Source: Candidatus Nanopelagicaceae bacterium
GTDB taxonomy: Bacteria; Chloroflexota; Dormibacteria; Aeolococcales; Bog-877
DNA: 47,580 nt
Reading direction: 5' to 3'
Assembly (NCBI GenBank): GCA_035531535.1
Contig: DATKSV010000003.1
Location: 1 to 47,580 of the forward strand
This document shows, piece by piece, positions 17,445-46,403 of this stretch (positions within the stretch are counted from its first letter, which is position 1; the number at the start of each line of letters is the position of its first letter). Both the position numbers and the translations under genes were made by a program. The notes below the pieces were generated by a model, which saw only the letters and a list, made by a program, of their open reading frames with translations, had not been told where the DNA came from and searched no databases.

Positions 17445-19443
17445 GGGACGCGCGGTGCCGTCCGCACGCCAGCGTTACAGCCGTTGGGACGGCAGCCAGG
17501 AAGGGGACTTCCCCGCCGCCGACGAGGTCTTCTCCCGGTTGGCCGAGGATGTCTTCCATGGCTGGGACTTCGACTCCGCCCTGCGCCGGCTGCTGAGCCA
17601 GGGCTTCAAGGACCCGCAGGGAAGGCGGCTGCCGGGGTTGGAGGGGCTGCTCGAGCAGATCCGGCAGCGCCGCCAGCAGCAGCTCCGGCGCTACAACCTG
17701 GAAGGTCTCTTCCAGGACATAGCGGAGCGCCTCGACGGGATCGTCAAGCGCGAGCGAGAGACCCTGGGGGAGCGCTTGGAGCAAGCCCGGGGCGAGCCCG
17801 GTGGATCTCTGGCACAACGGACCGCCAGCAGCCGGCTGAGCCAGCTCGACCAGCTGCCCCCCGAGCCCGGGTCGGCGATCGGGGAGCTGCAGAACTACGA
17901 GTTCATGGATCCCAGGGCCGAGGCCGACTTCCGGGAGCTGTTGGCCGAGCTTCGGCGCAATCTGGCGGAGTCGCACTTCCAGCAGCTGGGCCAGAGCATG
18001 CAGCAGATGGGCCCCGAACAGGTGGCCCAGATGCGCGCCATGATGGCTGACCTCAACGCGATGCTGGCCCGCCACCTGCGCGGCGAACCCCCTGGCTACG
18101 AGCAGTTCATGGCCAAGTGGGGCGACCTCTTCCCCGATCGCCCCCAGACCCTGGAAGAGTTCCTGGAGCAGTTGCAACGACGCATGGCGGAACTGGATTC
18201 CCTGCTGAAGTCGATGTCGCCGGAGGCGCGTCAGCAGCTCCAGGAGATGCTCGAGGGCGCCCTCTCCGATGAGGCGCTTCAGGCCGAGCTGGAGCAGCTC
18301 GCCCAGCTGATCGGGCAACTGGCCCCGGGCGACGGCGTGGGCAGCCGCTTCGGATTCTCCGGGGCCGAGGAGCTCAGCTTCCCCGAGGCCATGGACATGA
18401 TGGCCCGACTGCAGCGGCTGGAGGCGCTGGAACGCGGCTTGAGCCGCGCCGTGGAGGGGCAGGAGATGCCCTTGGATCTGCTCGAGCAGCTGGACTCGGA
18501 GCTAGGCCCGGAGGCGGCCGCCAGCGTGCGCCGGATCCAGCAGCTGCTGGAGGAGATGGAGCGCAACGGGCAGCTCCGCCGGGGCGAGCAGGGCCTCGAG
18601 CTGACCCCTCAGGGAGTGCGCCGGATCGGCCAGAAGGCCCTCCGCGACATCTTCTCGAATCTGCGCGGCGACCGCTTCGGGGGCCATCGGGTGGACCGTC
18701 CCGGCGGTGGCGGCGACCGCGGGGAGGAGAGCAAGGTCTACGAGTTCGGCGACCCCTTCACCCTGGATGTGGAACGGACCCTGATGAACGCCGTCCGCAG
18801 AGGCGAGGCGCGGGCCCCGCTGCGCCTGCTGACGGAGGACTTCGAGGTGGTGCGGCCGGAACAGACCGTGACCGCCAGCACCGTGCTGATGCTGGACATG
18901 AGCCGGAGCATGCCGCTGCGGGGCTACTTCTACGCCGCCAAGAAGATGGCCCTGGGGCTGGACGCCCTGATCCGCAGCCAGTTCCCCCGGGACAGCCTCT
19001 ACGTGGTGGGCTTCTCCGACTACGCCCGCGAGATCCCTCCCGGCGCGCTGGCTGAACTCTCCTACAGCGAGTATGTGTACGGCACCAACATGCAACACGG
19101 CCTGATGCTGGCGCGGCGCCTGCTCAACCGCCACCGCGGGGGCAACCGCCAGATCATCATCGTGTCGGACGGTGAGCCCACCGCTCACATGGAGGGCGAC
19201 CGAGCGGTGTTCTTCTACCCGCCCCTGCCGGAGACCTTCCAGAAGACCCTGCTGGAGGTCAGGCGCTGCACCCAGGAGAAGATCGTCATCAACACCTTCA
19301 TGCTGGAGAGCAACAGCTTCTTGGTCCAGTTCGTGAACCAGATCACCCGCCTCAACCGCGGCCGGGCCTTCTTTGTCAGCCCCGACCGGCTGGGTGACTA
19401 CGTCCTGGTCGACTATGTCAGTTCGCGGGCCCGCCCCGCCTGA
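17419..19443 (+). CDS. VWA-domain protein with a long coiled-coil Q/E/R-rich N-terminal region (Rv0959-type).
   Basis: 674 aa. The C-terminal VWA / MIDAS-like region reads VLMLDMSRSM...VVGFSDYAREI...IIIVSDGEPTAH. The ORF overlaps the ATPase stop. An alternative GTG start at 17455 lies just after the ATPase stop and has a GAGGGA RBS. Confidence 0.8.
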   Translation: MAPPSTPAEGRAVPSARQRYSRWDGSQEGDFPAADEVFSRLAEDVFHGWDFDSALRRLLSQGFKDPQGRRLPGLEGLLEQIRQRRQQQLRRYNLEGLFQDIAERLDGIVKRERETLGERLEQARGEPGGSLAQRTASSRLSQLDQLPPEPGSAIGELQNYEFMDPRAEADFRELLAELRRNLAESHFQQLGQSMQQMGPEQVAQMRAMMADLNAMLARHLRGEPPGYEQFMAKWGDLFPDRPQTLEEFLEQLQRRMAELDSLLKSMSPEARQQLQEMLEGALSDEALQAELEQLAQLIGQLAPGDGVGSRFGFSGAEELSFPEAMDMMARLQRLEALERGLSRAVEGQEMPLDLLEQLDSELGPEAAASVRRIQQLLEEMERNGQLRRGEQGLELTPQGVRRIGQKALRDIFSNLRGDRFGGHRVDRPGGGGDRGEESKVYEFGDPFTLDVERTLMNAVRRGEARAPLRLLTEDFEVVRPEQTVTASTVLMLDMSRSMPLRGYFYAAKKMALGLDALIRSQFPRDSLYVVGFSDYAREIPPGALAELSYSEYVYGTNMQHGLMLARRLLNRHRGGNRQIIIVSDGEPTAHMEGDRAVFFYPPLPETFQKTLLEVRRCTQEKIVINTFMLESNSFLVQFVNQITRLNRGRAFFVSPDRLGDYVLVDYVSSRARPA

Positions 19444-28659: not shown

Positions 28660-29316
28660 CTACAGGGCCGCCTCCGAGGTGGTCGGCGAGACCAGGAAGA
28701 TCCAGACGTCCCAGATCATGTGGCTGGCGATCAGGGCGGGCATGGGAACTCCGGCGGCGGCCAGGCCCGACCACCCGGCCCCGGCCATGGTGGCAGCCCC
28801 GACCAAGGTGGGGTTGCCAGTGCAGAGGTGCGCTCCGCCGTAGAGCGCGGTGGCCAGGGCGGCTCCGCGAGCCGGGCCGAACCGCCTCGAGAGCTCACCC
28901 TGCAGCAGCCCCCTCCAGAAGAGCTCCTCCGCGGGCGCCACCACCAGGGCCAGGCGGAGGGCCAGCTCCGACGCCGGCCGCAGCTGGCGCAGCTGGTAGA
29001 TGTTGCCGATGTCCTGGGCGCCCTTGGGCATCACCACCCGAGCGGCCCTGTCCCCGACCATGAACACGCCGTAGAGCCCGGCCGCGATCGCTCCCCCGAG
29101 GGCGAGGTCGGCGGCACGAGCCCGCTGGTGCCGCAGGGAGCGGTCGCCCACCAGCGCGGCCGAGCCCAGGACGAGGCCGGTTTTGGTCATGCGCTGCCAG
29201 AAGCGGGCCCGGGGCCCCCGAAAGGTGGCCACGAAGGCGGAGTAGGCGATCACGGTGCTCCCGGCCACGAACCAGGAGCCCCGCGAGCCCGCGTATGCCG
29301 GTCGCGTGAGGGTCAT
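28660..29316 (-). CDS. CPBP-family intramembrane glutamic endopeptidase (CAAX protease).
   Basis: 219 aa from MTLTRPAYAGS with a GGGGAGG RBS. CPBP motifs are present (EELFWRGLL, and a His in LYGGAHL). The longer track ORF has an Arg/Gly-rich spurious N-terminus and was trimmed. Confidence 0.75.
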   Translation of the reverse strand: MTLTRPAYAGSRGSWFVAGSTVIAYSAFVATFRGPRARFWQRMTKTGLVLGSAALVGDRSLRHQRARAADLALGGAIAAGLYGVFMVGDRAARVVMPKGAQDIGNIYQLRQLRPASELALRLALVVAPAEELFWRGLLQGELSRRFGPARGAALATALYGGAHLCTGNPTLVGAATMAGAGWSGLAAAGVPMPALIASHMIWDVWIFLVSPTTSEAAL

Positions 29317-29420
29317 CTGCGCCTCCCCGAAATGCCGCCGCCGCGGCTGCCCGCGAACCTCGAGCACCACCTTATCAAGCCGGGATCCGGGGCCCGGCCC
29401 CGCCATCGTCCGGGGTCGGA

Positions 29421-31400
29421 TCAGGGGTTCCAGAGCGCGGTCGCGGCCAGCCCCGCCACCAACAGCAGCCCGAAGGTCATGTGGAGCTGGGCGGTCTGGA
29501 GGTCGATCATGGAGATCGCCCTCTGCTGACCCGTGGCCCCCAGCTCGGAGGCGCGCATGGCCCGCACGAAGAGCGGCAGGGAGAGGAAGGCCAGCAGGCT
29601 GAGCCGAGGCAGGGCACCCACCGCGACCGCCGCCGCCAGAGCCACATAGGCGCCCACCAGGAGAAAGACGTAGAGGGCGTGGGCCGCCCGCCGGCCGGCC
29701 CTGATGGAGACCGTGCTGATCCCGGCCCGAGCGTCCTCTCCGATGTCGCGCCACTCGTTGCCGTGGAGGATGGCGGTCACCAGAAGGCCGATGGGGATGC
29801 TGGCCACGCCAGCGGTCAAGGACCAGGTGCCGGTGACCGTGTAGTAGCCGCCCATGACCATGAGCGGCCCCATCAGCAGGAACACCAGGGGCAGCCCGGC
29901 CGCTCGGTACTTGTACTGCAGCGGAGGGGCGGTGTAGCCCCAGCCGCCAACCAGCCCGATGACACCCAGCAGGGCCAGCTCCCAGCCTCGGACCGTGATC
30001 AGCCAGACCCCGACCCCAGTCGCGAGCAGGAAGGCGAGCGCGGCCAGGATGAAGGCGGCTCTCTCGGTTACGCGTCCGGTCACCAGAGCCAGGCTGGCCC
30101 GGGGCGAGGTGATGGCGTCTATCCCCTTGCGAACATCGTAGATCTCGTTGATGACGTTGGTGCCGACCTGGAGCATCACCCCACCCAAGAAGGCGGCCGC
30201 GAAGAGCGGCCAGTTCATGGCGTGGTCGGCCAGGGCCAGGCCGCCCGCCGCCGCCACCGGAATGGCGGACGCGGTCAGGCTGAAGGGGCGCAGGATCTCC
30301 AGCCAGCCCCGGGCCCGCCGGCCCAGGCCGATCCCGGTCTCGCTGCTGAGAGCGGCCCTCCGGGAGGTGGCGGCGGTGCCGGCCACCAGGTCCCCCGAGC
30401 TGGCGTAGAGGAGGGCGGCGTCGACCACCTCCTCCACCTGGTCATCCTCCTGGAGCACCGGCTGGAGGATGGGCAGGGTCATGCCCGCATCCCGGAAGCG
30501 CTGGGCCCCGGCCGCTATCTCCTCTCGGGTGCCGCACAGCAGGAAGGCGTCGACCAGCTCATCGGGGATGATCCGGGCCGCCCCGTGGTAGTCCTCCGCC
30601 CGCCAGGCGGTGGCGATGGCCTGGCGCAGAGCCGGGTCCAGGCCCGCCCGGCGCATGGCGAAGTCCGACTGGACGGATAGCATGTAGATGACGAAGGGCT
30701 CGCGCTTGGCCCGGTCGAGTGCGGCCCGGCGGCTGGAGTCGGCCAGGGCCAGCAGGTACCCGCCCACCTCCACCACCCCCGGAGGACGTCCCGCCGCCAA
30801 CTCGGCCGCCCGGATCCGGCGCACGGCCAGCTGGAGCGCCGGAAGGGACTCGGCCGGTCGCGCCAGAAACCCGTCCGCACTCCGCCCCGCCAGCTCGTGA
30901 AAGCCCCGGCGGTAGCCGGCAACCCAGATCGGGACGTGGTGCAGGGGGGGGAACATGGGCTCGATCTCGGGTAGTCCCGGCGCGGTTGGCAGGCGCTCGC
31001 CGGACCAGAGCTTGCGCAGTTCGAAGATGGTGGTCTCCACCTTGGCGGTGGCCAGGTCGGGATCGTAGTCGTAGCCCATCTGGCGGAGGCGCAGGGGCAG
31101 GGCGGACCCCAGGGCCAGCACGACCCGCCCCGGCGCCAGGTCATCGAGCGCACTCACGGTCATGGCGATCAGGACCGGGTGGCGGGTGTTGGGGTTGATC
31201 GCTCCCAGCGCCACCCGGATGCCGGGGACGGCGGCCGCCACCGCTGTCGTGTAGGTCACCGCATCCCGCTCGAAGTAGGACTCGTGGAACCACACCGAGT
31301 CCAGGCCGGCGCTGCCGGCGCGTTCGGCGTGGCGCACAGCGTCGCGGACATCGCCGTGGGAGGCGAGTCCCAGGCCCACCGGCCGGACTAGCGCGGCCAT
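29421..31400 (-). CDS. Fusion protein with an N-terminal LLM (luciferase-like, probably F420-dependent) oxidoreductase domain and a C-terminal UbiA-family (MenA-like) prenyltransferase domain.
   Basis: A single 659-aa frame. Residues 1-330 or so carry LLM motifs (GLDSVWFHESYF, VVLALGSALPL). Residues 390-659 or so are polytopic membrane with the UbiA Asp-rich motif region (NVINEIYDVRKGID). Confidence 0.7.
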   Translation of the reverse strand: MAALVRPVGLGLASHGDVRDAVRHAERAGSAGLDSVWFHESYFERDAVTYTTAVAAAVPGIRVALGAINPNTRHPVLIAMTVSALDDLAPGRVVLALGSALPLRLRQMGYDYDPDLATAKVETTIFELRKLWSGERLPTAPGLPEIEPMFPPLHHVPIWVAGYRRGFHELAGRSADGFLARPAESLPALQLAVRRIRAAELAAGRPPGVVEVGGYLLALADSSRRAALDRAKREPFVIYMLSVQSDFAMRRAGLDPALRQAIATAWRAEDYHGAARIIPDELVDAFLLCGTREEIAAGAQRFRDAGMTLPILQPVLQEDDQVEEVVDAALLYASSGDLVAGTAATSRRAALSSETGIGLGRRARGWLEILRPFSLTASAIPVAAAGGLALADHAMNWPLFAAAFLGGVMLQVGTNVINEIYDVRKGIDAITSPRASLALVTGRVTERAAFILAALAFLLATGVGVWLITVRGWELALLGVIGLVGGWGYTAPPLQYKYRAAGLPLVFLLMGPLMVMGGYYTVTGTWSLTAGVASIPIGLLVTAILHGNEWRDIGEDARAGISTVSIRAGRRAAHALYVFLLVGAYVALAAAVAVGALPRLSLLAFLSLPLFVRAMRASELGATGQQRAISMIDLQTAQLHMTFGLLLVAGLAATALWNP

Positions 31401-32335: not shown

Positions 32336-34258
32336 ATGCCAACCAGCCGACCCGGCGCCGTTTCCAGGGCGTGGCGGCGAGTGTTCGAGCCCGACCTTAT
32401 CCTGCTCCATGCGCCCTCGGTCTGGGACTTCCGCCAGGAGGTGATCCTGCAGGGTCCGCTTGCGGACGTGATCCCCTCCACCGACGAGTTCGAGATGTAC
32501 CCGATCGGACTCACCAGCATTGGCGGTTACCTGGAGCTCAACCACTACAACGTCCGCATCCTCAACATCGCCTACCGGATGCTGCGCGAGCCCAGCTACG
32601 ATGTCGCCAGCCATCTCCGCAAACTGCACTCCCCAGTTTTCGGCATCGACCTGCACTGGCTCCCCCATGCCAACGGCGCGCTGGGGATCGCCGATCTGGT
32701 CAAGCAGGTGCATCCCGACTCCAAGGTGTTACTCGGCGGCCTCTCCGCCAGCTACTTCCACCGGGAGCTGATCGCGAACCCGGCGGTCGATTTCGTGCTG
32801 CGAGGAGACTCCACCGAGGAGCCCTGCCGTCAGCTGCTGCAGGCGCTGCGCGAGGGATCGCCTCTGGAGCGGGTCCAGAACCTGACCTGGAAACGGCCCG
32901 ACGGAGAGGTGGTCGTGAACCCGCTCACATTCATCCCGGCCAACCTGGACTGGATCGACGTCCCCGCCTATGACTTCATGCTCCACGCGGTCTTCAAATA
33001 CCGCAGCCTCGCCGACTTCGTGCCCTATGCGGAGTGGCTGCAGTACCCCAGCACCATGGTGCTGAACGCCCGCGGCTGCCCCTACAACTGCTCCATCTGC
33101 GGCGGTTCCAGGTCGGGCTACCAGATTGTGGCCGGCCGGGCCCGGGCCGCCTATCGATCGCCCGAGAAGCTGGTTGCCGACATGCGCCGGATAGCCACCT
33201 TCTCGCGGGCCCCGATCTTCATGGTCCACGACCCCAGGGTGGGAGGGGTGGAGCGCGCCCAGCGGATCTTCGAACTGGTTGGCCGAGCCGAGATCCCCAA
33301 TGAGCTGACCATCGAGCTGTTCTACCCCGCCGGTCCCGACTTCTTCGCCATGGTTCGCAAGGCCACCAGGTGGTGGAGTCTGGAGATAACCATCGAGTCG
33401 CCCGACTACGAGATCCGCAAGGTCAACGGCAAGTTCCCGGTGTCGAACGCCGCCGTGGAGGAGACGATAGCGGCCGCCCTCGATCAGGGCTGCGAGAAGC
33501 TGGACCTCTTCTTCATGGTGGGGCTGCCCCGCCAGACTCCCGCCGACGCCCTGGCCACGGTCGACTACTGCCGGCACCTGGTCGAGCGCTTCCACGCCGA
33601 CAAGAGGCTGCAGTTCTACGTCGCCCCTCTGGGGCCATTCCTGGATCCGGGCAGCCGCGGCTTCGAGCAACCCGAGCTCGGCTATCACCGCCGCTTCACC
33701 ACCCTGGAGGAGCACCGTCAAGCCCTGCTCGGGCCCACCTGGCGGGAGATGCTCTCCTACGAGACTGACTGGATGACGAGGGAGCAGATCGTGGACACCA
33801 CCTACCGGGTCGCGGCCGGGATCAACGAGCTCAAGTTCGCATCCGGACTGATCGACGCCACCACCCACAACACCGTGGTCACGCATCTGGGGGCGGCCCG
33901 CGAGGTCCTGGCCGAGGTTGACAGAATCCTGCTACTGCCAAAGGCGGAGCAGGATGCCCGGCTGCGCACCCTGAAGGCCAAGACGGAGACCGCCAACACC
34001 GCCACCATGAACGGCAGCCAGGAGCTTAAGTGGCATTCGGCCACCGGGTTCCGGGTGAGCCGGCTCCTGGTCCGGCATCTGCTGGCGGCATTCCCACGGG
34101 AGGGCCAGCACGGCTGGGCGCGGCTGCTGGGGCATTACGACACGGCCGTCGCCCAGGTCAGATCCCTGCCGGAGCTGAGCGAACGGGTCAATGTAGGGCC
34201 TGGGGCCCCAGGCCCGCGGCCCCCAGAGGCCGCGCTCGCCGCTAGCTCTCGGGACTGA
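32336..34258 (+). CDS. B12-binding-domain radical SAM protein (class B rSAM).
   Basis: The N-terminal cobalamin-binding-like domain is followed by the rSAM cluster motif ARGCPYNCSICGG. The protein is about 640 aa. An alternative GTG start lies at 32381. Confidence 0.85.
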   Translation: MPTSRPGAVSRAWRRVFEPDLILLHAPSVWDFRQEVILQGPLADVIPSTDEFEMYPIGLTSIGGYLELNHYNVRILNIAYRMLREPSYDVASHLRKLHSPVFGIDLHWLPHANGALGIADLVKQVHPDSKVLLGGLSASYFHRELIANPAVDFVLRGDSTEEPCRQLLQALREGSPLERVQNLTWKRPDGEVVVNPLTFIPANLDWIDVPAYDFMLHAVFKYRSLADFVPYAEWLQYPSTMVLNARGCPYNCSICGGSRSGYQIVAGRARAAYRSPEKLVADMRRIATFSRAPIFMVHDPRVGGVERAQRIFELVGRAEIPNELTIELFYPAGPDFFAMVRKATRWWSLEITIESPDYEIRKVNGKFPVSNAAVEETIAAALDQGCEKLDLFFMVGLPRQTPADALATVDYCRHLVERFHADKRLQFYVAPLGPFLDPGSRGFEQPELGYHRRFTTLEEHRQALLGPTWREMLSYETDWMTREQIVDTTYRVAAGINELKFASGLIDATTHNTVVTHLGAAREVLAEVDRILLLPKAEQDARLRTLKAKTETANTATMNGSQELKWHSATGFRVSRLLVRHLLAAFPREGQHGWARLLGHYDTAVAQVRSLPELSERVNVGPGAPGPRPPEAALAASSRD

Positions 34259-35171: not shown

Positions 35172-36119
35172 ATGATGGTGCAGGGGAAAGTTTCGGCTGG
35201 GCTACGCCACGTGATCTCGGCCAGCCAGTTTGATCCCCTCCTGGTGGAGGATCTCTTCCAGCGCACCCGCTCCATGGAGGCCCTGCTGGAGGGCCGCCAG
35301 CTAGGGCCTCTGGGGGGCCGCATCATGGCCACCATCTTCTACGAGCCCAGCACCCGGACCAGGCTCAGCTTCGAGACCGCGATGCTGCGCCTGGGCGGCC
35401 AGGTGGTGGGCACCGAGAATGCCCGCGACTTCTCCTCCGCGGTCAAGGGCGAAACGCTGGAGGACACGGTGCGGATCGTGGGCGGCTACGCCGACTGCAT
35501 CGTGCTCCGGCACTCTGAGGAGGGGGCCGCCGCCCGGGCGGCGTCAGTCTCCCCGGTCCCGGTGATAAACGCCGGGGACGGCCCGGGGGAACACCCCACC
35601 CAGGCCCTACTCGACCTCTACACGATCTCGGCTGAGCTGGGGCGCCTGCACGATCTCCACGTGGTGCTGGTGGGGGACCTCGCCAACGGCAGGACCGTCC
35701 ACTCCCTGGCTCACCTGCTCGCCATGTACCCGGGTATGCGCCTGACGCTGGTAGCCCCCGGAAGGGTCAGGATGGGTGGCGATCTGATCTCCAGCCTGAG
35801 GCAGCGCGGGGTGCAGGTGGAACATGCCGAGGACCTCTTGCACGCGGTCGGCGGCGCCGACGTGGTCTACCAGACCAGGATTCAGACTGAGCGCCTCTCC
35901 GAGCCCTGGCTCGAGGCCGACGCGGAGCGGCAGCGGTTCGCGATCACCCCGGCGGTGATGCGGGCCCTGCCGGCGGGAGCGATTCTGATGCACCCGCTGC
36001 CCCGGGTGGGCGAGATCGATCCCGAGGTTGACAGTGACCCCAGGGCCGCCTACTTCCGTCAGGCCCGCAACGGGGTACCGGTGCGGATGGCGCTGTTGAG
36101 CCGGGTTCTGACGGCTTGA
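35172..36119 (+). CDS. pyrB: Aspartate carbamoyltransferase catalytic subunit.
   Basis: Motifs STRTRLSFETA, HPTQ and HPLPR identify an ATCase rather than an ornithine carbamoyltransferase. Confidence 0.9.
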   Translation: MMVQGKVSAGLRHVISASQFDPLLVEDLFQRTRSMEALLEGRQLGPLGGRIMATIFYEPSTRTRLSFETAMLRLGGQVVGTENARDFSSAVKGETLEDTVRIVGGYADCIVLRHSEEGAAARAASVSPVPVINAGDGPGEHPTQALLDLYTISAELGRLHDLHVVLVGDLANGRTVHSLAHLLAMYPGMRLTLVAPGRVRMGGDLISSLRQRGVQVEHAEDLLHAVGGADVVYQTRIQTERLSEPWLEADAERQRFAITPAVMRALPAGAILMHPLPRVGEIDPEVDSDPRAAYFRQARNGVPVRMALLSRVLTA

Positions 36120-36709
36120 CCGGCAGCCACCTGAAGGTGCCGCCCCACCAGCTTATTGCCGATGCCGACGAGGTTCAGCGCATCCTCTTCCGACTCTCCC
36201 GGGAGCTTCAGGAGCGGCACCGAGACCCAGCTCTCGTGACCCTTTGCGGGATCGTCACCCGGGGCGTTTTCCTGGCCGACCGCCTGCGCCGCATGATCGA
36301 GGAGCAGGGAGGTGGGAGCTGGGATGCAGTGAGCCTCGACGTCGGCCCCTACCGGGACGACGAGATCCGGCCCCAGGGGGCCAGCCGATCCGGAGGCATG
36401 CCCGACTTCCCGCTGCCCACGGCTACCGCGGAGAGGGTTCGCGACCGGGTGGTGGTGCTGGTTGATGACGTCTTCTATCACGGCCGGACTGTGCGGGCGG
36501 CCCTGGCGGCCCTGGCGGAGCTGGCCCGGCCCAGGGCGGTCGAGCTCCTGGTCCTGGTCGATCGGGGGCACCGCGAGCTGCCTCTTCGGGCCACCTACGT
36601 GGGCAAGAACATCCCCACCGCCCAGAACGAGCGGGTGGCGGTGACGGTGGTCGGCTGTGACGCCGACGACGCCATCCGGCTGGAGCGGTCCGAGGAGCCT
36701 AAGGCGTGA
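36116..36709 (+). CDS. pyrR: Bifunctional pyr operon regulator / uracil phosphoribosyltransferase PyrR.
   Basis: A TTG start overlaps the pyrB stop (TTGA). It carries the PRTase motif VVVLVDDVFYHGRTVRAAL and the PyrR C-terminus (ATYVGKNIPT). Confidence 0.85.
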   Translation: MTGSHLKVPPHQLIADADEVQRILFRLSRELQERHRDPALVTLCGIVTRGVFLADRLRRMIEEQGGGSWDAVSLDVGPYRDDEIRPQGASRSGGMPDFPLPTATAERVRDRVVVLVDDVFYHGRTVRAALAALAELARPRAVELLVLVDRGHRELPLRATYVGKNIPTAQNERVAVTVVGCDADDAIRLERSEEPKA

Positions 36710-38025
36710 AAGAGCTGCTACTTCGCAAGGTCCGGATCGTCGACCCCGTCGGGGGCAAGGACCGCGACAGCTACGACTTGCTGATCCGAGACGGGATCGT
36801 GGCCGAAATGGCGAGCAAGCTGGTCCTGCCCGCCGGCGGGGTGGTGCTGGAACGGCCCGGCAGCGTGGTCAGCCCCGCCTTCCTCGACCTCCACTGCCAC
36901 CTCCGTGAGCCCGGGCAGCCATGGAAGGAGCGCATCGCCAACGCCACCGCGGCGGCCGCGGCGGGCGGCTTCGGGGCGATCTGCGCCATGGCGAATCTGC
37001 AGCCGCCGCTGGACACTGAGCCGCGGCTGCGCCAGGCGCGCAGCAAGAACCGCTCCTGGGGCCGGATTCCCATCTTGCAGTTCGCAGCCTGCAGCACCGG
37101 CCTGCGCGGCCAGGAGCTGGTCGACATGGAGGGCCTGGTCGCCGCCGGCGCCGCTGGCTTCTCCGACGACGGCCGCCATGGCTGCGACCAGCGGATTCTG
37201 GCGGAGGGGCTGGCCCGCGCCCACTCCCTGGGCCGCCTCGTTGCCATTCACCCCGAGGACGAGCGCATCGTCGCCATGGCCAACGAATGGTCGGGGAGCG
37301 ACCCCACCGCCTGGAGCCTGCGTCCGGCGGAGGCGGAGGAGGCGGCGGTGACATCCGCGATCGCGGCGCTGCGGGATGCCGAGGTGGGCCGGCTCCACCT
37401 GCAGCACCTGACCACCGCCACCTCCGTGACCCTGGTTCGCCAGGCGAAGTCGGAAGGGCTGGCGCTGACGGCGGAGGTTACCCCCCATCACCTCATGCTC
37501 AGCGGCTTCCTGCGGGACCCCGACGTCCCCGGGCTCAATCTGACCTGCAACCCGCCGCTGCGCACGGAGGCGGATCGAGCCGCCCTCTGGGAGGGTCTGT
37601 TGGACGGCACCATCGACGCCATCGCCAGCGACCACGCTCCCCATGAGGTGCCCACCGATCCCCTGCAGAGGCGCCCGCCGGGGTTCAGCGGGGTCCAGGC
37701 CGTGCTCTCCGTGGTGCTCGGCCACCAGGATTCCGGCTCGCATCTGACCCGGATCGTGGCAGCTCTCAGCGCCGGCCCCCTCAGGGTCCTGGGGGCGGCC
37801 GCGGAAGGGCTCCCCAGCACCGGGATCCAGGTCGGCGAGCCGGCCCACCTCACCTGGTTCGATCCGGCCGGCAGATGGACCCCTGACCGGAGCTCATGGC
37901 TGTCGCTGGGAACCAACACCCCCTTCTGGCACCAGCAGCTGCGGGGCACCGTGCTGGCCACCTTCTCGCGCGGCCGGGCGGTGTACATAAGCCGCGGGCT
38001 GGGCGCGGAGATCGAACTTGACTGA
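36706..38025 (+). CDS. pyrC: Dihydroorotase.
   Basis: A GTG start overlaps the pyrR stop. Metal-ligand motifs are present (DLHCHLREPG, ASDHAPH). Confidence 0.9.
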   Translation: MKELLLRKVRIVDPVGGKDRDSYDLLIRDGIVAEMASKLVLPAGGVVLERPGSVVSPAFLDLHCHLREPGQPWKERIANATAAAAAGGFGAICAMANLQPPLDTEPRLRQARSKNRSWGRIPILQFAACSTGLRGQELVDMEGLVAAGAAGFSDDGRHGCDQRILAEGLARAHSLGRLVAIHPEDERIVAMANEWSGSDPTAWSLRPAEAEEAAVTSAIAALRDAEVGRLHLQHLTTATSVTLVRQAKSEGLALTAEVTPHHLMLSGFLRDPDVPGLNLTCNPPLRTEADRAALWEGLLDGTIDAIASDHAPHEVPTDPLQRRPPGFSGVQAVLSVVLGHQDSGSHLTRIVAALSAGPLRVLGAAAEGLPSTGIQVGEPAHLTWFDPAGRWTPDRSSWLSLGTNTPFWHQQLRGTVLATFSRGRAVYISRGLGAEIELD

Positions 38026-41000
38026 CGAGAGCCGCGCGCGGCGGACTCGAGGGCTGCTGGTGCTTGAGTCCGGGGCCAGCTTCGAGGGCACCTGGCTGGG
38101 CGCCGCACCGAAGCAGGCCTTTGGCGAGGTGGTGTTCAACACCTGCATGACCGGGTACCAGGAGGTGTTGACGGATCCCTCGTACGCGGGCCAGTTCGTG
38201 GTCTTCACCCAGCCCCTGATCGGCAACGTCGGCTGTGCCCCAGTCGACATGGAGTCGAGCCGGGCCTGGGCACGGGGTGTGATCGTCGCCGAAGCCAGCC
38301 CCACCTCCCCCCACTGGCAGGCCCAGGAGACATTCTCCAACTGGTTGAGGCACCAGGGCGTCCCGGGCCTGACCGGGGTCGACACCCGGGCGCTCACCCG
38401 ACACCTCCGCGACCACGGGACGCTCAAGGGGGTGCTGGCCCCGCTGGACGGGCGGGATCCCATCGAGCTGCTGCAGCTGGCCCGGGAGTCGCCCGGGGTC
38501 TCCCAGCAACGGCTCGTCGCCGAAGTCTCCTGCACGGCTACTTACCAGGCCAGCGACCCGCTTCATCCGGCGCTGCTCCGGGGCGCTGCTGGCGGCAGGA
38601 GCGGGGAGCCGCTGAGGATCGCTGTGATCGACTTCGGAGTCAAGTACAACACCCTGCGGTCGCTGGTCAGCCGAGGCGCCGAGGTGTGGGTCCTCCCCCA
38701 CTCCGCCGCCCCAGCCGACCTGGAGCGGCTGGCCCCGGACGGGGTGGTTCTGACCAACGGACCTGGCGATCCGGCCCAGCTCCCGGCGGAGCTGGAGCTC
38801 ACCCGGGCGGTGCTGGCCCGCTACCCGGTGCTGGCCATCTGCCTGGGGCACCAGCTGGTGGGCCGGGCCATCGGGGCGACCACCAGCCGGCTCCCCTTCG
38901 GACACCACGGGGGCAATCACCCGGTTCAGGACGAGACCACCGGCAGGGTCTTCGTCACCCCCCAAAACCATGAGTTCCAGGTCGACTCGGAGAGCATTCC
39001 CGAGGGCTCAGGCTGGTTTGTCTCGGAGCGCAACCTCAACGACGGCTCGGTGGAGGGCATCCGGCATCGGCAGCTGCCGGTGATCTCGGTTCAGTACCAC
39101 CCCGAGGGAAGCCCGGGGCCCCAGGACCGCCAACACCTCTTCGACGAGTTCCTGGCGCTCTGCCGGGACGAGCCGCGGGTGGAGGCGGCGCCGGCTCCGA
39201 GAACAAGCCGCGACCGGCCCCGCAAGGTCCTGGTCCTAGGCAGTGGGCCGATCGTGATCGGGCAGGCCGCCGAGTTCGACTACGCGGGGACTCAGGCCTG
39301 CCATTCCCTGCGCGAGGAGGGCGTCGAGGTGGTGTTGGTCAACAGCAACCCGGCCACCATCATGACCGACGAGGACACCGCCGACCGCGTCTACCTGGAG
39401 CCCCTCACCGTGGAGTCGGTGGAGAGGATCATCGCTCTGGAGCGCCCTGATGCCCTGCTGGCCGGGCTGGGCGGCCAGACCGCCCTCAACCTCGCCGTCC
39501 AGCTCGACGACCAGGGAGTTCTGGCGCGCCACTCGGTGCGGGTGCTGGGAACTCAGCTGGAAGCGGTGCGCGACTCCGAGGATCGGGACCGGTTCAAGCG
39601 CCGGATGGTGGCGATCGGGGAGCCGGTGCCGCCCTCGCGGACGGTCAACAGCGTCGCCGAGGCGGTCCACTTCGCCGCCGAGGTCGGGCTGCCTTTGGTG
39701 GTGCGGCCCGCCTTCACCCTGGGTGGCACCGGCGGTGGCATAGCCAGCAGCGACGAGGAGCTGGAGCAGATCGTCGCCCGGGGCCTGCGCGCCAGCCCCA
39801 TCACCCAGGTGCTGGTGGAGCAGGCACTGCTGGGCTGGCGGGAGCTGGAGTACGAGGTGATGCGCGATGGAGATGGCAGCTGCATCTGCGTTTGCAACAT
39901 GGAGAACCTCGACCCCATGGGCGTCCACACCGGGGACTCGGTGGTGGTGGCCCCCAGCCAGACCCTCACCGACAAGGAACACCAGCAGCTCCGCTCGGCG
40001 GCGCTCCGGATCATCTCCGCGCTGGGGATAGAGGGCGGCTGCAACGTCCAGTTCGCGCTCGCCCCCGACGCCTGCAACTACTTCGTGATCGAGGTCAACC
40101 CCAGGGTCAGCCGCTCGTCGGCCCTGGCCTCGAAGGCGACCGGCTACCCGATCGCGCGGGTCGCCGCCAAGATCGCCCTCGGGCTCAGCCTGCGCGAGAT
40201 CCAAAACCAGGTGACGCAGCGCACCTCGGCCGCCTTCGAGCCCAGCCTCGACTACTGCGTGGTCAAGATCCCGCGCTGGCCGTTCGACAAATTCCCCCAC
40301 GGCGACCGCCGCCTGGGTACCCAGATGAAGTCCACCGGCGAGGCGATGGCGATCGGGCGCAACTTTCAGTCCGCGATCTCCAAGGCGCTGCGTTCGCTGG
40401 AGCAGGGCCAACCCGACGAGGCCACGCTGCGGCTGGCCAGCGAGAGGCTGGAGCAGGCCACCGATCTGCGGCTGCTGGGAGTGCTGGAGGCGCTGCGCCA
40501 GGGCCAGCCAGCAACGACGGTCGCCGCCCGCACCGGGTACCCGGCCTGGTTCTGTGATCGGCTGGGGGAGCTGGTCGCCCTGGAACAGGAGCTGGGACAG
40601 AGCCCTGGTGCCGTCCCACAACCGGGCCTTCTCCGGCGAGCCAAGCAGTTCGGGCTCAGCGACCAACGGATCGCCGAGCTCATCCACGTTGACCTCCAGC
40701 GGCTCCGGGAGCATCGCCTGACGGCCGGGATCCAGCCCACCTTCAAGTGCGTCGACACCTGTGCCGCCGAGTTCGACGCCACCACCCCCTACTTCTACTC
40801 CAGCTTCGAGCAGGAGAACGAGCAGAGGGCTGGGGGTGGAGCGGCGGTGGTGCTGGGCTCGGGGCCGATCCGGATCGGCCAGGGGATCGAGTTCGATTAC
40901 TGCTCGGTGCAGGCGGCGGCGGCCCTGCGCCGCCAGGGTCTGGAAGCGGTCATGATCAACAGCAATCCGGAGACGGTGTCCACCGACTTCGACTGCAGTA

Positions 41001-42460
41001 GCCGCCTCTACTTCGAACCACTCGACCTGGAGGCGGTGCTCGAGGTCTGCTCAGTTGAGAGGCCGCTGGGGGTCGTGGTCCAGTTCGGCGGCCAGACCGC
41101 GATCAACCTGGCGCCCCGCCTGGAACGGCTCGGGGTGCCCCTGCTGGGGTCGCCCAGCCGGGCGATAGAGATGGCCGAGGATCGCGGTCAGTTCGAGGCA
41201 CTGCTCGGCCGGCTGGGGATCGCGCGGCCGCCGGGCGCGGTGACCCGGGACCCGGACGAGGCGGTGGCGATCGCACGCCGAGTGGGGTACCCGGTGCTGG
41301 TACGCCCCTCCTACGTGCTCGGGGGGCGGGCGATGGACGTCACCCACTCCGAGGAGGAGTTGCGCCACTACCTGGGGGAGGCGCTGCGAGCCTCCGGCGA
41401 CGCCGGGGGCGAGGTCCTGATTGACAAGTACATCCTGGGGCTAGAGGTCGAGGTAGACGCGGTCAGCGACGGAACCGAGGTGCTCGTCCCCGGGGTCATG
41501 GAGCACATCGAGCGTGCCGGGGTGCACTCGGGTGACTCGATGGCGGTCTTCCCGCCCCAGCGGCTCAGGCCGGAGGCGATCGCGGAGCTGGTCGAGACCA
41601 CCACCAGGCTCGCTCTGGAGACCGGCACGGTTGGGCTGATCAACGTCCAGTACGTGGTCCATCGGGGGCGGGTGCTGGTGATCGAGGTCAATCCCCGCTC
41701 CAGCCGGACGGTGCCGTTCCTCAGCAAGGTGACCGGAGTGGCGATGGTGGATGCCGCCGTCCGCGCGATGCTGGGACAGTCCCTCCGGGGGCAGGGGCTG
41801 CGCCCCGGGCTGGCACCCCCGCCACCGCTGATAGCGGTCAAGGCCCCGGTGTTCTCCAGCCGCAAGCTGAACTCGGTGGACACGGTCCTGGGGCCGGAGA
41901 TGACCTCCACTGGCGAGGTGATCGGCGTCGACGCCACGCTCACGGCCGCACTCGAGAAGGCGTTCCTGGCGGCCTTGGGATCTTTGCCCAGCCAGGGGGG
42001 CGCCCTGGTCAGCATCGCCGACCAGGACAAGCCGGAGGGCCTCCCGGTGGTGGCGAGGCTGGCGGAGCTGGGCTTCACCATCTACGCCACCGCGGGCACC
42101 GCGGCCGCCCTGCGCCAGGCTGGAGTCAGCGTGGTGGAGGTCAACAAGCTGCACTCCGGACGCCCCGACGTGGTCGATGTGACGGTCGGCGGGCAGGTGC
42201 AGCTGGTGATCAACACCATCTCCCGGGTGGCGACGGACGAGATGCTGGGCGAGGAGTCCCACGGCGACTCCCGGCGCCCGGTCCGGGACGGATACCGGAT
42301 CCGTCAGGCGGCGGTGCAGCGGGGCATCCCCTGCCTCACCTCCCTCGACACCGCGGCGGCGCTGGTGCAGGCGCTGGAGAGCAGCCAGGGAGGGAGCCTG
42401 ACCCGGATCGCCACCATCGACGAGCACCGCCGAGGCACTCCGCAGGTGGCCCCAGCGTGA
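38018..42460 (+). CDS. carAB: Carbamoyl-phosphate synthase, small (glutaminase) and large subunits fused in one 1480-aa frame.
   Basis: A TTG start overlaps the pyrC stop. Residues 1-390 or so form the CarA GATase domain, with a Cys in AICLGHQL. The linker EPRVEAAPAPRTSRDRP runs straight into the CarB N-terminus KVLVLGSGPIVIGQAAEFDYAGTQAC with no stop. Two ATP-grasp halves and a C-terminal MGS-like domain follow. Confidence 0.85.
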   Translation: MTDESRARRTRGLLVLESGASFEGTWLGAAPKQAFGEVVFNTCMTGYQEVLTDPSYAGQFVVFTQPLIGNVGCAPVDMESSRAWARGVIVAEASPTSPHWQAQETFSNWLRHQGVPGLTGVDTRALTRHLRDHGTLKGVLAPLDGRDPIELLQLARESPGVSQQRLVAEVSCTATYQASDPLHPALLRGAAGGRSGEPLRIAVIDFGVKYNTLRSLVSRGAEVWVLPHSAAPADLERLAPDGVVLTNGPGDPAQLPAELELTRAVLARYPVLAICLGHQLVGRAIGATTSRLPFGHHGGNHPVQDETTGRVFVTPQNHEFQVDSESIPEGSGWFVSERNLNDGSVEGIRHRQLPVISVQYHPEGSPGPQDRQHLFDEFLALCRDEPRVEAAPAPRTSRDRPRKVLVLGSGPIVIGQAAEFDYAGTQACHSLREEGVEVVLVNSNPATIMTDEDTADRVYLEPLTVESVERIIALERPDALLAGLGGQTALNLAVQLDDQGVLARHSVRVLGTQLEAVRDSEDRDRFKRRMVAIGEPVPPSRTVNSVAEAVHFAAEVGLPLVVRPAFTLGGTGGGIASSDEELEQIVARGLRASPITQVLVEQALLGWRELEYEVMRDGDGSCICVCNMENLDPMGVHTGDSVVVAPSQTLTDKEHQQLRSAALRIISALGIEGGCNVQFALAPDACNYFVIEVNPRVSRSSALASKATGYPIARVAAKIALGLSLREIQNQVTQRTSAAFEPSLDYCVVKIPRWPFDKFPHGDRRLGTQMKSTGEAMAIGRNFQSAISKALRSLEQGQPDEATLRLASERLEQATDLRLLGVLEALRQGQPATTVAARTGYPAWFCDRLGELVALEQELGQSPGAVPQPGLLRRAKQFGLSDQRIAELIHVDLQRLREHRLTAGIQPTFKCVDTCAAEFDATTPYFYSSFEQENEQRAGGGAAVVLGSGPIRIGQGIEFDYCSVQAAAALRRQGLEAVMINSNPETVSTDFDCSSRLYFEPLDLEAVLEVCSVERPLGVVVQFGGQTAINLAPRLERLGVPLLGSPSRAIEMAEDRGQFEALLGRLGIARPPGAVTRDPDEAVAIARRVGYPVLVRPSYVLGGRAMDVTHSEEELRHYLGEALRASGDAGGEVLIDKYILGLEVEVDAVSDGTEVLVPGVMEHIERAGVHSGDSMAVFPPQRLRPEAIAELVETTTRLALETGTVGLINVQYVVHRGRVLVIEVNPRSSRTVPFLSKVTGVAMVDAAVRAMLGQSLRGQGLRPGLAPPPPLIAVKAPVFSSRKLNSVDTVLGPEMTSTGEVIGVDATLTAALEKAFLAALGSLPSQGGALVSIADQDKPEGLPVVARLAELGFTIYATAGTAAALRQAGVSVVEVNKLHSGRPDVVDVTVGGQVQLVINTISRVATDEMLGEESHGDSRRPVRDGYRIRQAAVQRGIPCLTSLDTAAALVQALESSQGGSLTRIATIDEHRRGTPQVAPA

Positions 42461-43350: not shown

Positions 43351-43358
43351 GAGTCATC

Positions 43359-45764: not shown

Positions 45765-46403
45765 GTGACTCTTCGTTCCGTGGTTCCCCAAGGGCCGGCT
45801 CCTGGCCAGCGCCGCCCAAGCAGCGCGGCCGGGCGGATCAAGACCCATGGCGCTCGGGTGGCCTGTCGATCAGGCTCAACGACTGGTCGCTCTGTGGGGA
45901 GCTCGAAGGCCCGGCGAGTGAGCCAGAACCGGGATGGACGCGCCCTCTCCCACTCCACCTTGGCGGAGATTCGCCAGCCGGCAGTGGAACGCATCGTGCG
46001 AGACGGCGATAGTCCGGAGCTAGTGATCAAAGCGCTGGGATTCCATCGCTCTGTGATCTACGAGTGGCTGGGGCGGTTCCGTAAGGGGGGAATGGCGGCG
46101 CTGGAGGCCCAACCAGTGCCGGGACGGCCCAGCAAGCTGGGGCCCAAGGAGATGCAGCGGTGGCGGGAGGAGGAGTACCCCGCCATCCAGAAGCTGGCCA
46201 AGCAGGAAGATGCGGTGATCTACTTCGGGGATGAGGCGGGGATCCGCTCCGATCACCCCAGCGGCACCACTTGGGCCCCCCAAGGCATGACCCCTGTGGC
46301 GCGGACGACGGGGAGCCGCTTCGGGATGAACCTGATCTCAGCGTTCTCTGCCAAGGGGTTGCGAACAGTTGCTCGTACGATGAGCTATGGTGAGCGGAGA
46401 TGA
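45765..46403 (+). pseudogene. IS630-family transposase, N-terminal HTH plus the start of the DDE domain only (truncated).
   Basis: The wHTH region (RSVIYEWLGRFRKGGMAALEAQPVPGRP) and the first DDE block (VIYFGDEAGIRSDHPSGTTWAPQGMTPV..NLISAFSAKG) are present. The homology ends abruptly at the IS607-type tnpA start. About 150 of the expected roughly 340 aa are present. Confidence 0.6.

Follow-up and report, generated by a model that had tools for sequence, protein, structure and literature searches.

What does an F420-type luciferase-like (LLM) oxidoreductase contribute when it is built into the same polypeptide as a membrane prenyltransferase? The question is raised by a stretch of 47,580 nucleotides (hereafter, the window) from a soil bacterium of the candidate phylum Dormibacterota, in which one minus-strand gene encodes both domains and is followed by a gene for a putative intramembrane hydrolase. 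We propose, with moderate confidence, that the locus specifies a late menaquinone-biosynthesis module in which an F420H2-dependent domain on a tether serves to reduce the head group of the naphthoquinone. The features on which the argument draws are the following.

29421..31400, minus strand: complete LLM-MenA-like prenyltransferase fusion gene, 659 aa plus stop (ORF and two Pfam domains)
30399..31376, minus strand: Mer-like, F420-type LLM TIM-barrel domain, aa 9-334, predicted cytoplasmic (Pfam, NCBIfam, PDB, AlphaFold2, Foldseek)
30330..30392, minus strand: flexible inter-domain linker, aa 337-357, DLVAGTAATSRRAALSSETGI (pLDDT and translation)
29430..30326, minus strand: nine-helix prenyltransferase domain of the UbiA superfamily, MenA/UBIAD1 clade, aa 359-657 (Pfam, NCBIfam, PDB, AlphaFold2)
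30117..30158, minus strand: first Asp-rich motif, N415-VINEIYDVRKGID-428 = NVINEIYDVRKGID, aa 415-428, at the cytoplasmic end of TM2 (translation, alignment)
29721..29759, minus strand: second Asp-rich motif, N548-EWRDIGEDARAG-560 = NEWRDIGEDARAG, aa 548-560, at the cytoplasmic end of TM6 (translation, alignment)
28660..29316, minus strand: predicted glutamic-type intramembrane hydrolase of the CPBP/Rce1-like kind, 218 aa with the ATG at 29316 as start (Pfam, motifs, synteny)

A sequence-only reading of the window had described an uninterrupted 659-aa frame joining an LLM and a UbiA domain, and this description holds. The ORF opens with ATG and contains 0 internal stops according to both the ORF list and re-translation, and its codon-position GC content (0.73/0.51/0.91) is the GC3 pattern that a genuine coding sequence would show at 70 % genomic GC. 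Positions 30390-30420, where a hidden stop had been considered, are read through as AALLYASSGD, the last part of the LLM domain, immediately ahead of the linker, predicted by AlphaFold2 to be disordered, that separates it from the nine-helix prenyltransferase. The same two-domain protein (about 640-725 aa) recurs across more than 120 protein clusters at 59-92 % identity, and 80 full-length fusion loci were verified among 353 candidate species genomes confirmed by tblastn. Carriers belong to Dormibacterota, Actinomycetota, and Chloroflexota, and include an isolate with a closed genome, Acidothermaceae bacterium B102 (AP028633.1), besides a Dormibacterota chromosome (OY969577.1) and the large contigs CAVSMA010000002.1 and JBJMLO010000011.1. 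Since the protein is continuous in all of these clusters and verified loci, closed isolate genome included, a frameshift or chimera is excluded; an assembly artefact was likewise ruled out by the continuous ORF and by the recurrence of the architecture in at least 80 independent genomes. A promoter and terminator scan of the fusion locus returned no sites.

The family had also been reported as unfamiliar. The architecture is real and widespread, but full-text searches of a paper library, together with a targeted reading of a 2021 F420 review, gave no description of the LLM-MenA fusion, of the MenA-CPBP pairing, or of quinones in Dormibacterota. Database names for the fusion protein are in conflict, being either 'MenA' or 'LLM class flavin-dependent oxidoreductase'.

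The assignment of the N-terminal half to the F420-type LLM enzymes was borne out by sequence and structure, with Mer ranking first in both. Pfam Bac_luciferase (PF00296) matches aa 15-308 (30477-31358) with an E-value of 2e-43 (149 bits vs a cut-off of 27.9), and all strong NCBIfam matches are F420 LLM families, led by Mer and F420 LLM subfamilies, while the best FMN-type match (TIGR04020) reaches only 38 bits. Among PDB sequences, the nearest is F420-dependent Mer (4e-23), followed by fHMAD, FGD, and Adf; the top 7 matches are all F420 enzymes, as are 10 of the 12 overall, the two exceptions being the luciferase-like monooxygenase RslO1 (7bip, 1.9e-07) and the FMNH2-dependent SfnG (8t0u, 2.3e-04). 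Furthermore, the AlphaFold2 model of this half is a confident beta/alpha-barrel that superposes on LLM structures, and a Foldseek search of the PDB gave F420-dependent enzymes for all 29 best matches, with TM scores of 0.87-0.89 for Mer. Judged by these matches, the domain is closer to the F420-dependent than to the FMN-dependent members, yet it fits no named F420-LLM subfamily, as it scores below the cut-off of each (Mer NF002619, 115 bits vs 276; TIGR03857, 80 vs 218; TIGR03841, 79 vs 214). Homologues carry a W-F-H-E-S-Y motif in this half, and PMC6279831 offered no sequence motif separating F420 from FMN users that could be applied here. The same source places Mer in the 'reductase' branch of the F420-LLMs, whose members consume F420H2 (PMC6279831), and the fusion carriers belong to phyla that produce F420, Actinobacteria and Chloroflexi being among the listed producers (PMC8498797). 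The LLM domain thus most likely uses reduced coenzyme F420 as its hydride donor. A separate F420-LLM, of family TIGR03620, is encoded elsewhere in the 47-kb window and scores above its cut-off.

The C-terminal half is a UbiA-type prenyltransferase with its Asp-rich motif in place at aa 415-428, as had been proposed, and with a second such motif at aa 548-560. Pfam UbiA (PF01040) matches aa 382-616 (29553-30257; E 1.7e-32, 113 bits vs a cut-off of 34.2), and AlphaFold2 predicts nine long helices, TM2 and TM6 each carrying one of the motifs at its end. Both Mg2+/diphosphate-binding patterns of the superfamily, NxxNExxDxxxGxD and NxxRDxxxDxxxG, are intact. The first occurs as N-x-x-N-E-x-Y-D-x-R-K-G-x-D in 120/120 homologues examined, with N415, N418, E419, D422, R424, G426, and D428 invariant; the second, kept in the same 120/120, has N548, E549, W550, R551, D552, D556, and G560 invariant and aligns with the corresponding motif of UBIAD1. 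The domain falls in the MenA/UBIAD1 clade, given that MenA equivalogs are its top NCBIfam matches and that UBIAD1, a menadiol prenyltransferase that makes MK-4, is its sole PDB relative (8djk, 5e-22). However, every MenA equivalog match lies below its cut-off (NF004749, 156 bits vs 277; NF004751, 148 vs 264; TIGR00751, 78 vs 102), so the substrate specificity could differ. This shortfall, with UBIAD1 as the best solved relative, would suit an accessory system distinct from the respiratory MenA, which would reduce and prenylate some other aromatic, in naphthoquinone salvage or detoxification as for UBIAD1 or in the making of a specialised metabolite, with the CPBP protein serving in processing or immunity. 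UbiA-type enzymes for other aromatics do exist, such as a dihydroxyphenazine prenyltransferase (PMC4044012). On the other hand, the nearest unfused relatives of the C-terminal half (41-48 % identity) mostly pass the MenA TIGR00751 cut-off.

The LLM domain is not the only redox partner to have been joined to such enzymes. A quinone reductase domain of the type II NAD(P)H dehydrogenase kind (NDH-2; nearest PDB entries, bacterial NDH-2s at 7e-28) is fused to a MenA-like enzyme in Spirochaetota, where the fusion gene overlaps a polyprenyl synthase gene, and a PNPOx/FDOR-type split barrel is fused to a MenA-like enzyme in about 20 clusters, with the same CPBP gene following. The LLM, split-barrel, and NDH-2 fusions occupy separate clades of the prenyltransferase tree; by this phylogeny, related MenA-like enzymes acquired the split-barrel and NDH-2 domains independently of the LLM domain. 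The taxonomy of the split-barrel fusions is uncertain: their nearest named unfused relatives are Planctomycetota MenA proteins, from which they probably belong to phyla not known as F420 makers. If those phyla indeed lack F420, the common theme would be flavin/deazaflavin redox chemistry and not F420 itself.

These independent recruitments also point to a need for catalytic redox chemistry, and so weigh against reading the LLM domain as a relic without catalysis, or as a regulatory or scaffold part, beside a prenyltransferase that acts alone. Such a role would be compatible with subfamily matches that all fall under their cut-offs and with the predicted arrangement of the domains: AlphaFold2 models both confidently, but the pLDDT drops below 50 at aa 337-357 and the pTM is 0.55, so that no fixed docking is predicted and channelling between the two active sites lacks structural support. 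The two halves are nevertheless conserved to a similar degree, with 64 invariant columns in the LLM half, besides many near-invariant ones, and 79 in the prenyltransferase half of the homologue alignment, which spans three phyla. Together with the high-confidence fold and its close superposition on Mer, this makes a relic very unlikely. The basic residues RRARGW precede TM1 of the prenyltransferase domain, consistent with a cytoplasmic N-terminus; the LLM domain is predicted to be cytoplasmic.

The second component of the locus is the CPBP gene. The sequence-only reading had listed CPBP and SHOCT genes as same-strand neighbours of the fusion; their positions are correct (CPBP downstream, SHOCT upstream, both on the minus strand), but only the former is conserved. 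The CPBP gene lies directly downstream on the same strand in 77/81 fusion loci, in most cases with an overlap or a gap of a few nucleotides, and the same CPBP subfamily also follows related MenA-like genes without the LLM domain. It is thus a near-universal partner and part of the same unit as the fusion. Its product matches Pfam Rce1-like (PF02517; 3e-11, 43.8 bits vs a cut-off of 22.4) and has the motifs EExxxR, YxxxH, and HxxxD as EELFWR, YGGAH, and HMIWD, which are at least 95 % conserved in 65 orthologues. A GGGGAGG Shine-Dalgarno sequence lies upstream of the ATG at 29316; an alternative ATG at 29406 would give a protein of 248 aa. The CPBP protein may act as a hydrolase, or it may help to handle the substrate.

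That the prenyltransferase is almost always paired with an Rce1-family protease retaining its catalytic motifs could also be read as a sign of peptide or protein lipidation, in which the UbiA-type enzyme would prenylate a peptide and the CAAX-protease-like CPBP would trim it, and the CPBP protein does resemble the myxosortase models MrtC/MrtS. That resemblance is weak, however, at 27-28 bits and far under the cut-offs of 130-195, and a search beside the cassette for conserved small ORFs or candidate substrate genes gave only out-of-frame CPBP overlaps and low-complexity sequence. The prenyltransferase moreover has MenA-type motifs for aromatic acceptors and is linked to MenG, as described below, and we know of no UbiA-family enzyme that prenylates peptides. 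We consider this explanation extremely improbable.

The wider gene neighbourhood speaks to the product of the menaquinone module that we favour. No men, mqn, isoprenoid, or F420-biosynthesis genes occur in the 47-kb window, and at most fusion loci, the window included, quinone-pathway genes are not adjacent, as would be expected of an accessory system. The SHOCT gene and a gene for a B12-radical-SAM protein were considered as parts of the system and set aside, neither being conserved beside the fusion in other loci. The B12-radical-SAM neighbour is of the TIGR04190 family and lies on the opposite strand to the fusion, and the only recombinase fragment in the window is 15 kb from the fusion.

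The picture is different in Actinomycetota. The order fusion-CPBP-MenG was found in L016 and L025/L094, with a 4-nt overlap at the CPBP-MenG junction, and in five further loci (L026, L031, L033, L036, and L038) a divergent MenG gene is present with a MenJ-like FAD reductase gene behind it, the latter being of the FAD_binding_3/geranylgeranyl-reductase type. On the equivalog model for demethylmenaquinone methyltransferase, the MenG neighbour reaches 388 bits (cut-off 327). This linkage is limited to one Actinomycetota clade and is absent at the Dormibacterota and Chloroflexota loci. An operon with an equivalog-level MenG and a nearby MenJ-like gene nonetheless argues against the accessory system, as does the lack of conserved biosynthetic-cluster genes around the fusion across loci. 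The protein tree of the fusion for the most part follows phylum boundaries, as would suit a housekeeping function. Its exceptions, namely the division of the Actinomycetota carriers into two separate clades and the nesting of one Acidiferrales MAG within Dormibacterota, hint at some horizontal transfer and are the remaining point in favour of an accessory role, which we regard as unlikely. A mobile accessory cassette found no support, given the largely phylum-coherent tree and the lack of integrase or transposase neighbours.

Another possible substrate of the LLM domain is the isoprenoid tail of the quinone. Partly saturated menaquinones are common among Actinomycetota, and the domain could do the job of MenJ by saturating tail double bonds, which would yield partly hydrogenated menaquinones such as MK-9(H2-H8). 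Among the LLM-type F420 enzymes that have been characterised, we know of reduction at C=N or C=O bonds and of alcohol oxidation, but of none that reduces isolated alkenes. F420H2-dependent enzymes are able to reduce activated C=C bonds (PMC8498797), and a reductase tethered near the site that binds the prenyl chain could reach that chain. However, a separate MenJ-like gene already adjoins the cassette in the Actinomycetota loci, and the analogous partners, NDH-2 and the FDOR-like split barrel, belong to families that reduce quinone rings and not prenyl chains. Tail saturation therefore appears improbable to us.

A ring reductase of another kind is encoded near several of the fusions. A Ddn-type FDOR-A gene (TIGR00026, 125 bits vs 46) precedes the fusion by 109-144 nt, in the same orientation, at six Dormibacterota-clade loci, and such a gene is also nearby in three Actinomycetota fusion loci, for nine loci altogether. 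Ddn-type enzymes use F420H2 in the reduction of menaquinone (PMC8498797). Where a stand-alone FDOR-A quinone reductase is encoded beside the cassette, the LLM domain might be superfluous as a further ring reductase.

In the late menaquinone module that we favour, the MenA-type domain, with its active site facing the cytoplasm, would join a polyprenyl chain to 1,4-dihydroxy-naphthoate/naphthoquinol to give demethylmenaquinol. The LLM domain, on a flexible tether of ~25 residues, would carry out an F420H2-driven two-electron reduction of the naphthoquinone ring, and this could serve either of two ends: holding the acceptor as the hydroquinone, the form required for prenylation, or re-reducing demethylmenaquinone to the quinol that is the substrate of MenG methylation. 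In the phylloquinone pathway of cyanobacteria and plants, a reduction of the latter kind belongs to NdbB/NDC1, NDH-2 enzymes that act on demethylphylloquinone, and it must precede methylation by MenG (PMC5299476). The CPBP-family intramembrane hydrolase, with its catalytic residues intact, would complete a two-gene module with the fusion. It had been suggested at the outset that a quinone, for instance menaquinone, is reduced and prenylated in a coupled manner; the MenG/MenJ-like linkage and the convergent NDH-2 and split-barrel fusions lend this suggestion independent backing. The use of F420, the naphthoquinone ring as what the reductase acts on, and menaquinone as the product are inferred. 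The alternative of a prenylated-cofactor variant, put forward at the same time, gained no support.

A more demanding version, which we hold only tentatively and think rather doubtful, would add two components, so far overlooked, to menaquinone biosynthesis in several large bacterial phyla that are mostly uncultured: a dedicated head-group reductase, taken up independently as an LLM, split-barrel, or NDH-2 domain and fused to MenA, and the CPBP protein as an obligate catalytic partner of the prenyltransferase, for example a membrane-embedded DHNA-CoA thioesterase or a substrate-delivery subunit. In this version, F420H2 would directly supply the reducing power for making quinones. If the CPBP protein is such a catalytic partner, this would be the first small-molecule biosynthetic role of the CAAX-protease fold. 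If the menaquinone module is correct, F420 would gain a biosynthetic role in abundant soil lineages; the poorly understood bacterial CPBP family would gain a defined metabolic partner; and the inconsistent names under which the fusion is filed would be corrected. The closed genome of the isolate Acidothermaceae bacterium B102 makes this main reading directly testable.

Comparison with known systems places the fusion among familiar enzymes and apart from each of them. Like MenA (1,4-dihydroxy-2-naphthoate polyprenyltransferase, EC 2.5.1.74) and its animal relative UBIAD1, its C-terminal half has the 9-TM fold of the UbiA superfamily with both Asp-rich motifs, and there is linkage, in Actinomycetota, to MenG, which acts next in the pathway. 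Unlike them, the fusion has a 335-aa N-terminal LLM domain and a CPBP partner, neither of which we found described for MenA or UBIAD1 in the papers searched. The LLM half shares its TIM-barrel fold with Mer, the F420-dependent methylene-tetrahydromethanopterin reductase and its top relative in sequence and structure, but its identity to Mer is ~22 %, and it is found in aerobic soil bacteria, tethered to a membrane domain and outside any methanopterin context; its substrate must therefore differ from that of Mer.

The CPBP partner resembles the Rce1/CPBP family in keeping the EExxxR, (F/Y)xxxH, and HxxxN/D motifs, and Rce1 itself recognises an isoprenoid-bearing substrate. In contrast to the CAAX prenyl proteases and the bacteriocin-processing CPBPs, the partner gene is paired with a quinone prenyltransferase and a peptide substrate is not evident. 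Proteins of the CPBP fold, such as LnsB and APH-1, can act as non-proteolytic partners (PMC7387801).

Two kinds of ring reductase offer functional parallels. Ddn/FDOR-A enzymes share F420H2-dependent menaquinone reduction with the proposed role of the LLM domain, are encoded near nine of the fusions, and are related to the split barrel that replaces the LLM domain in the sister fusions; they are nonetheless split beta-barrels, stand alone as soluble or peripheral proteins, and are assigned to respiration or detoxification and not to biosynthesis. NdbB/NDC1 would share the proposed role, in reducing the ring between prenylation and methylation, and the Spirochaetota NDH-2-MenA-like fusion adjoining a polyprenyl synthase gene is a direct parallel. 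Yet NdbB/NDC1 is a Rossmann-type flavoprotein that uses NAD(P)H and is a separate protein, whereas the LLM domain is a fused TIM barrel. In the textbook bacterial menaquinone pathway, MenA is followed directly by MenG, and to our knowledge an intervening ring-reduction step is recognised only in cyanobacteria and plants. Taken together, the LLM, split-barrel, and NDH-2 fusions suggest that this reduction step is general and has been repeatedly hard-wired by gene fusion.

The gene at 29421-31400 is one reading frame that opens with ATG and is uninterrupted by any stop codon, and its codon-position GC content (0.73/0.51/0.91) is that of real genes of this ~70 % GC sequence. The two Pfam domains lie far above their curated cut-offs, and the junction at 30390-30420 is free of stops, translating to AALLYASSGD at the end of the LLM domain, so that the single 659-aa frame proposed from the sequence alone stands. 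The relevant genes of the window are:

28660-29316, minus strand: CPBP/Rce1-like gene; likely start ATG 29316 with the Shine-Dalgarno sequence GGGGAGG upstream, alternative ATG 29406
29421-31400, minus strand: fusion gene (LLM + UbiA), 659 aa
31608-31880: SHOCT gene
32336-34258, plus strand: B12-binding radical SAM gene (TIGR04190, 600 bits against a cut-off of 500), divergent from the SHOCT gene

The LLM-UbiA fusion is real and occurs widely. Among 5.8 billion proteins searched, more than 120 clusters share its two Pfam domains (640-725 aa, 59-92 % identity). A genome scan in which each GTDB species was represented once gave 353 tblastn-confirmed stretches, the best 80 loci of which all encode the full-length fusion. 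Carriers among these best 80 belong to Candidatus Dormibacterota (including MAG contig JABEUU010000065.1, 95 % identical to the window), Actinomycetota (Mycobacteriales, Frankiales and the closed isolate genome of Acidothermaceae bacterium B102) and Chloroflexota (Chloroflexia, Anaerolineae and Limnocylindria). Public names for the protein disagree, with MenA used by JGI and 'LLM class flavin-dependent oxidoreductase' by NCBI. A neighbour-joining tree of the fusions was largely coherent by phylum, which speaks against a mobile cassette, and comprised a monophyletic Dormibacterota clade that includes the window and two Actinomycetota clades; inheritance appears mostly vertical, with a few old transfers. 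One fusion gene from a MAG labelled Candidatus Acidiferrales (L018, DATLTJ010000023.1) fell deep within the Dormibacterota clade, a placement that would reflect either mis-binning or recent transfer.

An AlphaFold2 model of the fusion (input alignment of 78 sequences, mean pLDDT 84.8) and the domain searches divided the protein as follows:

aa 9-334: beta/alpha barrel (model)
aa 15-308: Bac_luciferase (LLM) domain (Pfam, 2e-43, 149 bits)
aa 337-357: disordered inter-domain linker (pLDDT < 50)
aa 359-370: short helix (model)
aa 372-657: nine long helices (model)
aa 382-616: UbiA domain (Pfam, 1.7e-32, 113 bits)
N415-VINEIYDVRKGID-428: first prenyltransferase motif
N548-EWRDIGEDARAG-560: second prenyltransferase motif

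At a pTM of 0.55, no fixed inter-domain arrangement and no docking between the halves was predicted. Similar constraint acts on both, with 64 invariant columns in the LLM half and 79 in the prenyltransferase half. The first motif sits at an end of TM2 and the second at an end of TM6; the protein has no signal peptide and carries the basic residues RRARGW just before TM1. Both the LLM domain and the active site of the prenyltransferase therefore probably lie on the cytoplasmic side.

Assignment of the C-terminal half to the UbiA family was upheld by the Pfam match, by UBIAD1 (8djk, 5e-22), its sole solved relative, and by both motifs, each kept in 120 of 120 homologues. Its best NCBIfam matches are MenA equivalogs (e.g., NF004749, 7.7e-46), every one under cut-off, as is TIGR00751 for MenA (78 bits versus 102). 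The N-terminal half likewise groups with the F420 type, as its strongest PDB sequence matches are F420-dependent: Mer (methylene-tetrahydromethanopterin reductase, 4e-23) leads, followed by hydroxymycolic acid dehydrogenase, FGD and Adf. The exceptions among its 12 PDB matches are the luciferase-like monooxygenase RslO1 (7bip, 1.9e-07) and the FMNH2-dependent SfnG (8t0u, 2.3e-04), and F420-dependent enzymes fill the top 29 places of a Foldseek search of the PDB (Mer at TM 0.87-0.89). Mer sits in the F420-LLM branch that consumes F420H2 (PMC6279831). Since the half scores under cut-off for every named F420-LLM subfamily, it represents a new one, and we infer F420 use by the fusion from homology and taxonomy only. 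A second LLM in the window (9665-10564, minus strand) passes the cut-off of the F420-dependent family TIGR03620; together with a Pyridox_ox_2 split-barrel gene (13181-13843, plus strand) and a ComB-like 2-phosphosulfolactate phosphatase gene (15074-15880, minus strand), all within 6 kb, it hints at F420 use by the organism.

Clustering of all ORFs from 81 loci left the fusion with a sole conserved neighbour, the CPBP/Rce1-like gene (~215 aa), which lies directly downstream on the same strand, typically overlapping or at most 13 nt away. A profile search recovered it in 77 of the 81 loci, two of the four exceptions being on truncated contigs, and it belongs to the unit. The sequence-only reading had named both the CPBP and SHOCT genes as neighbours; only the former is a conserved partner. 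The SHOCT and TIGR04190 genes were dropped as parts of the system, neither being kept beside the fusion in other genomes. For the CPBP protein, intact catalytic motifs (EExxxR, YxxxH and HxxxD, conserved to 95 % or more across 65 orthologues) favour a hydrolase. No conserved peptide-substrate gene was found near the cassette, and non-proteolytic partner roles exist for CPBP-fold proteins, namely, LnsB and APH-1 (PMC7387801). In Acidothermaceae bacterium B102, a YaaA/H2O2_YaaD peroxide-stress gene (L093, 12607-13389) begins 4 nt after the fusion-CPBP pair.

An exhaustive HMMER search with the prenyltransferase half against 1.84 billion representatives returned unfused proteins of 41-48 % identity as the nearest, most of them past the TIGR00751 cut-off, as well as relatives joined to other redox domains:

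L092 6001-7580 and L086 1029-2656: unfused MenA-like genes P0130 and P0135, with the cassette-type CPBP gene directly after (1e-37 to 1e-44 against the cassette CPBP profile)
L083 6001-7961 and L085 6001-7913: split-barrel fusions, each overlapping by 4 nt a downstream gene of that CPBP subfamily (two loci examined)
L081 719-3809 and L097 8001-11149: NDH-2 fusions, with a polyprenyl synthase gene directly after in both clusters (31 nt downstream in L081, 4-nt overlap in L097/L098)

Since P0130 and P0135, two of the nearest unfused proteins, also have the CPBP gene after them, its pairing with the prenyltransferase predates the LLM fusion; the subfamily is absent after the unfused P0134, P0141 and P0443. 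The split-barrel fusions (~20 clusters, ~450 aa) bear a ~150-aa N-terminal module that resembles PNPOx/general-stress-protein-26/Rv2991 split barrels in profile searches, and their nearest unfused relatives are annotated MenA proteins of Planctomycetota. Fusions to NDH-2 (type-II NADH:quinone oxidoreductase), an enzyme type that reduces quinones, form two divergent clusters from Spirochaetota MAGs, one of them on 8 contigs, and are nearest in the PDB to the NDH-2s of Caldalkalibacillus, S. aureus and B. subtilis (7e-28). In a tree of prenyltransferase domains with poorly resolved deep branches, the LLM fusions group in a single clade that lies within a set of unfused proteins linked to CPBP genes, and the NDH-2 and main split-barrel fusions fall elsewhere; despite that poor resolution, three unrelated redox folds appear to have been joined independently to MenA-clade enzymes. 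Fusions of UbiA to a cupin (P0160), an ABC-transporter permease (P0199) and HTH_17 (P0129) have a single representative each and are possible gene-calling artefacts.

Linkage to menaquinone genes was seen in other genomes. Linkage to an equivalog-level MenG gene (demethylmenaquinone methyltransferase; NF001241, 388 bits versus 327) is confined to one Actinomycetota clade, where the gene lies either after the CPBP gene in the same operon with a 4-nt overlap (L016, L025/L094, the last with nuoA-D ~8 kb off) or upstream in divergent orientation, where a gene for a MenJ-like FAD_binding_3 reductase comes next (L026, L031, L033, L036 and L038). The presence of this separate MenJ-like gene adjoining the cassette argues against saturation of the isoprenoid tail by the LLM domain. 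Six Dormibacterota-clade loci have an FDOR-A (Ddn-type) gene (TIGR00026, 125 bits versus 46) on the strand of the fusion and 109-144 nt upstream of it; in three Actinomycetota loci such a gene is convergent and downstream. According to PMC8498797, F420-dependent oxidoreductases have two main families, the split-barrel and LLM superfamilies, and Ddn-family enzymes (FDOR-A) are F420H2-dependent menaquinone reductases. No men, mqn or isoprenoid genes were found in the window. Its other genes include a compact pyrimidine operon (35172-44288: pyrB, PRTase/PyrR-like, pyrC-like, carAB, pyrK-like and pyrD) in which a single 1480-aa protein (38018-42460, plus strand) unites CarA and CarB, the small and large chains of carbamoyl-phosphate synthetase. 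They also include a gene pair for a MoxR-like AAA+ ATPase and a VWA-domain protein (16050-19443, plus strand) and, close to the end of the window, a truncated N-terminal fragment of a resolvase (46400-46735, plus strand).

The unit is very probably a quinone prenyltransferase module of the MenA type with a link to menaquinone synthesis; the full statement, in which the module includes ring reduction by F420H2, has about an even chance of being correct. The simplest common explanation for the three fusion types would be reduction of the naphthoquinone head group by the tethered redox domain, with F420H2 as the putative reductant in the window's fusion protein. Such a reduction may hold the prenyl acceptor in its hydroquinone form, or else resupply MenG with demethylmenaquinol. 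Full-text searches and targeted reading, with most subscription-journal papers outside their scope, found no description of the LLM-MenA architecture or of a MenA-CPBP pairing. The families of both domains are well known, and precedents exist for the proposed chemistry; what makes the fusion notable is how widely it occurs, the convergence of fusions and a CPBP partner that was not expected. Head-group reduction is preferred as the common reading because NDH-2 and FDOR-A enzymes reduce quinones and because NdbB/NDC1 offers a precedent. In phylloquinone synthesis, this NDH-2 must reduce the demethylphylloquinone ring before MenG methylates it (PMC5299476), and the same role ahead of MenG is proposed for the tethered domain of the fusion.
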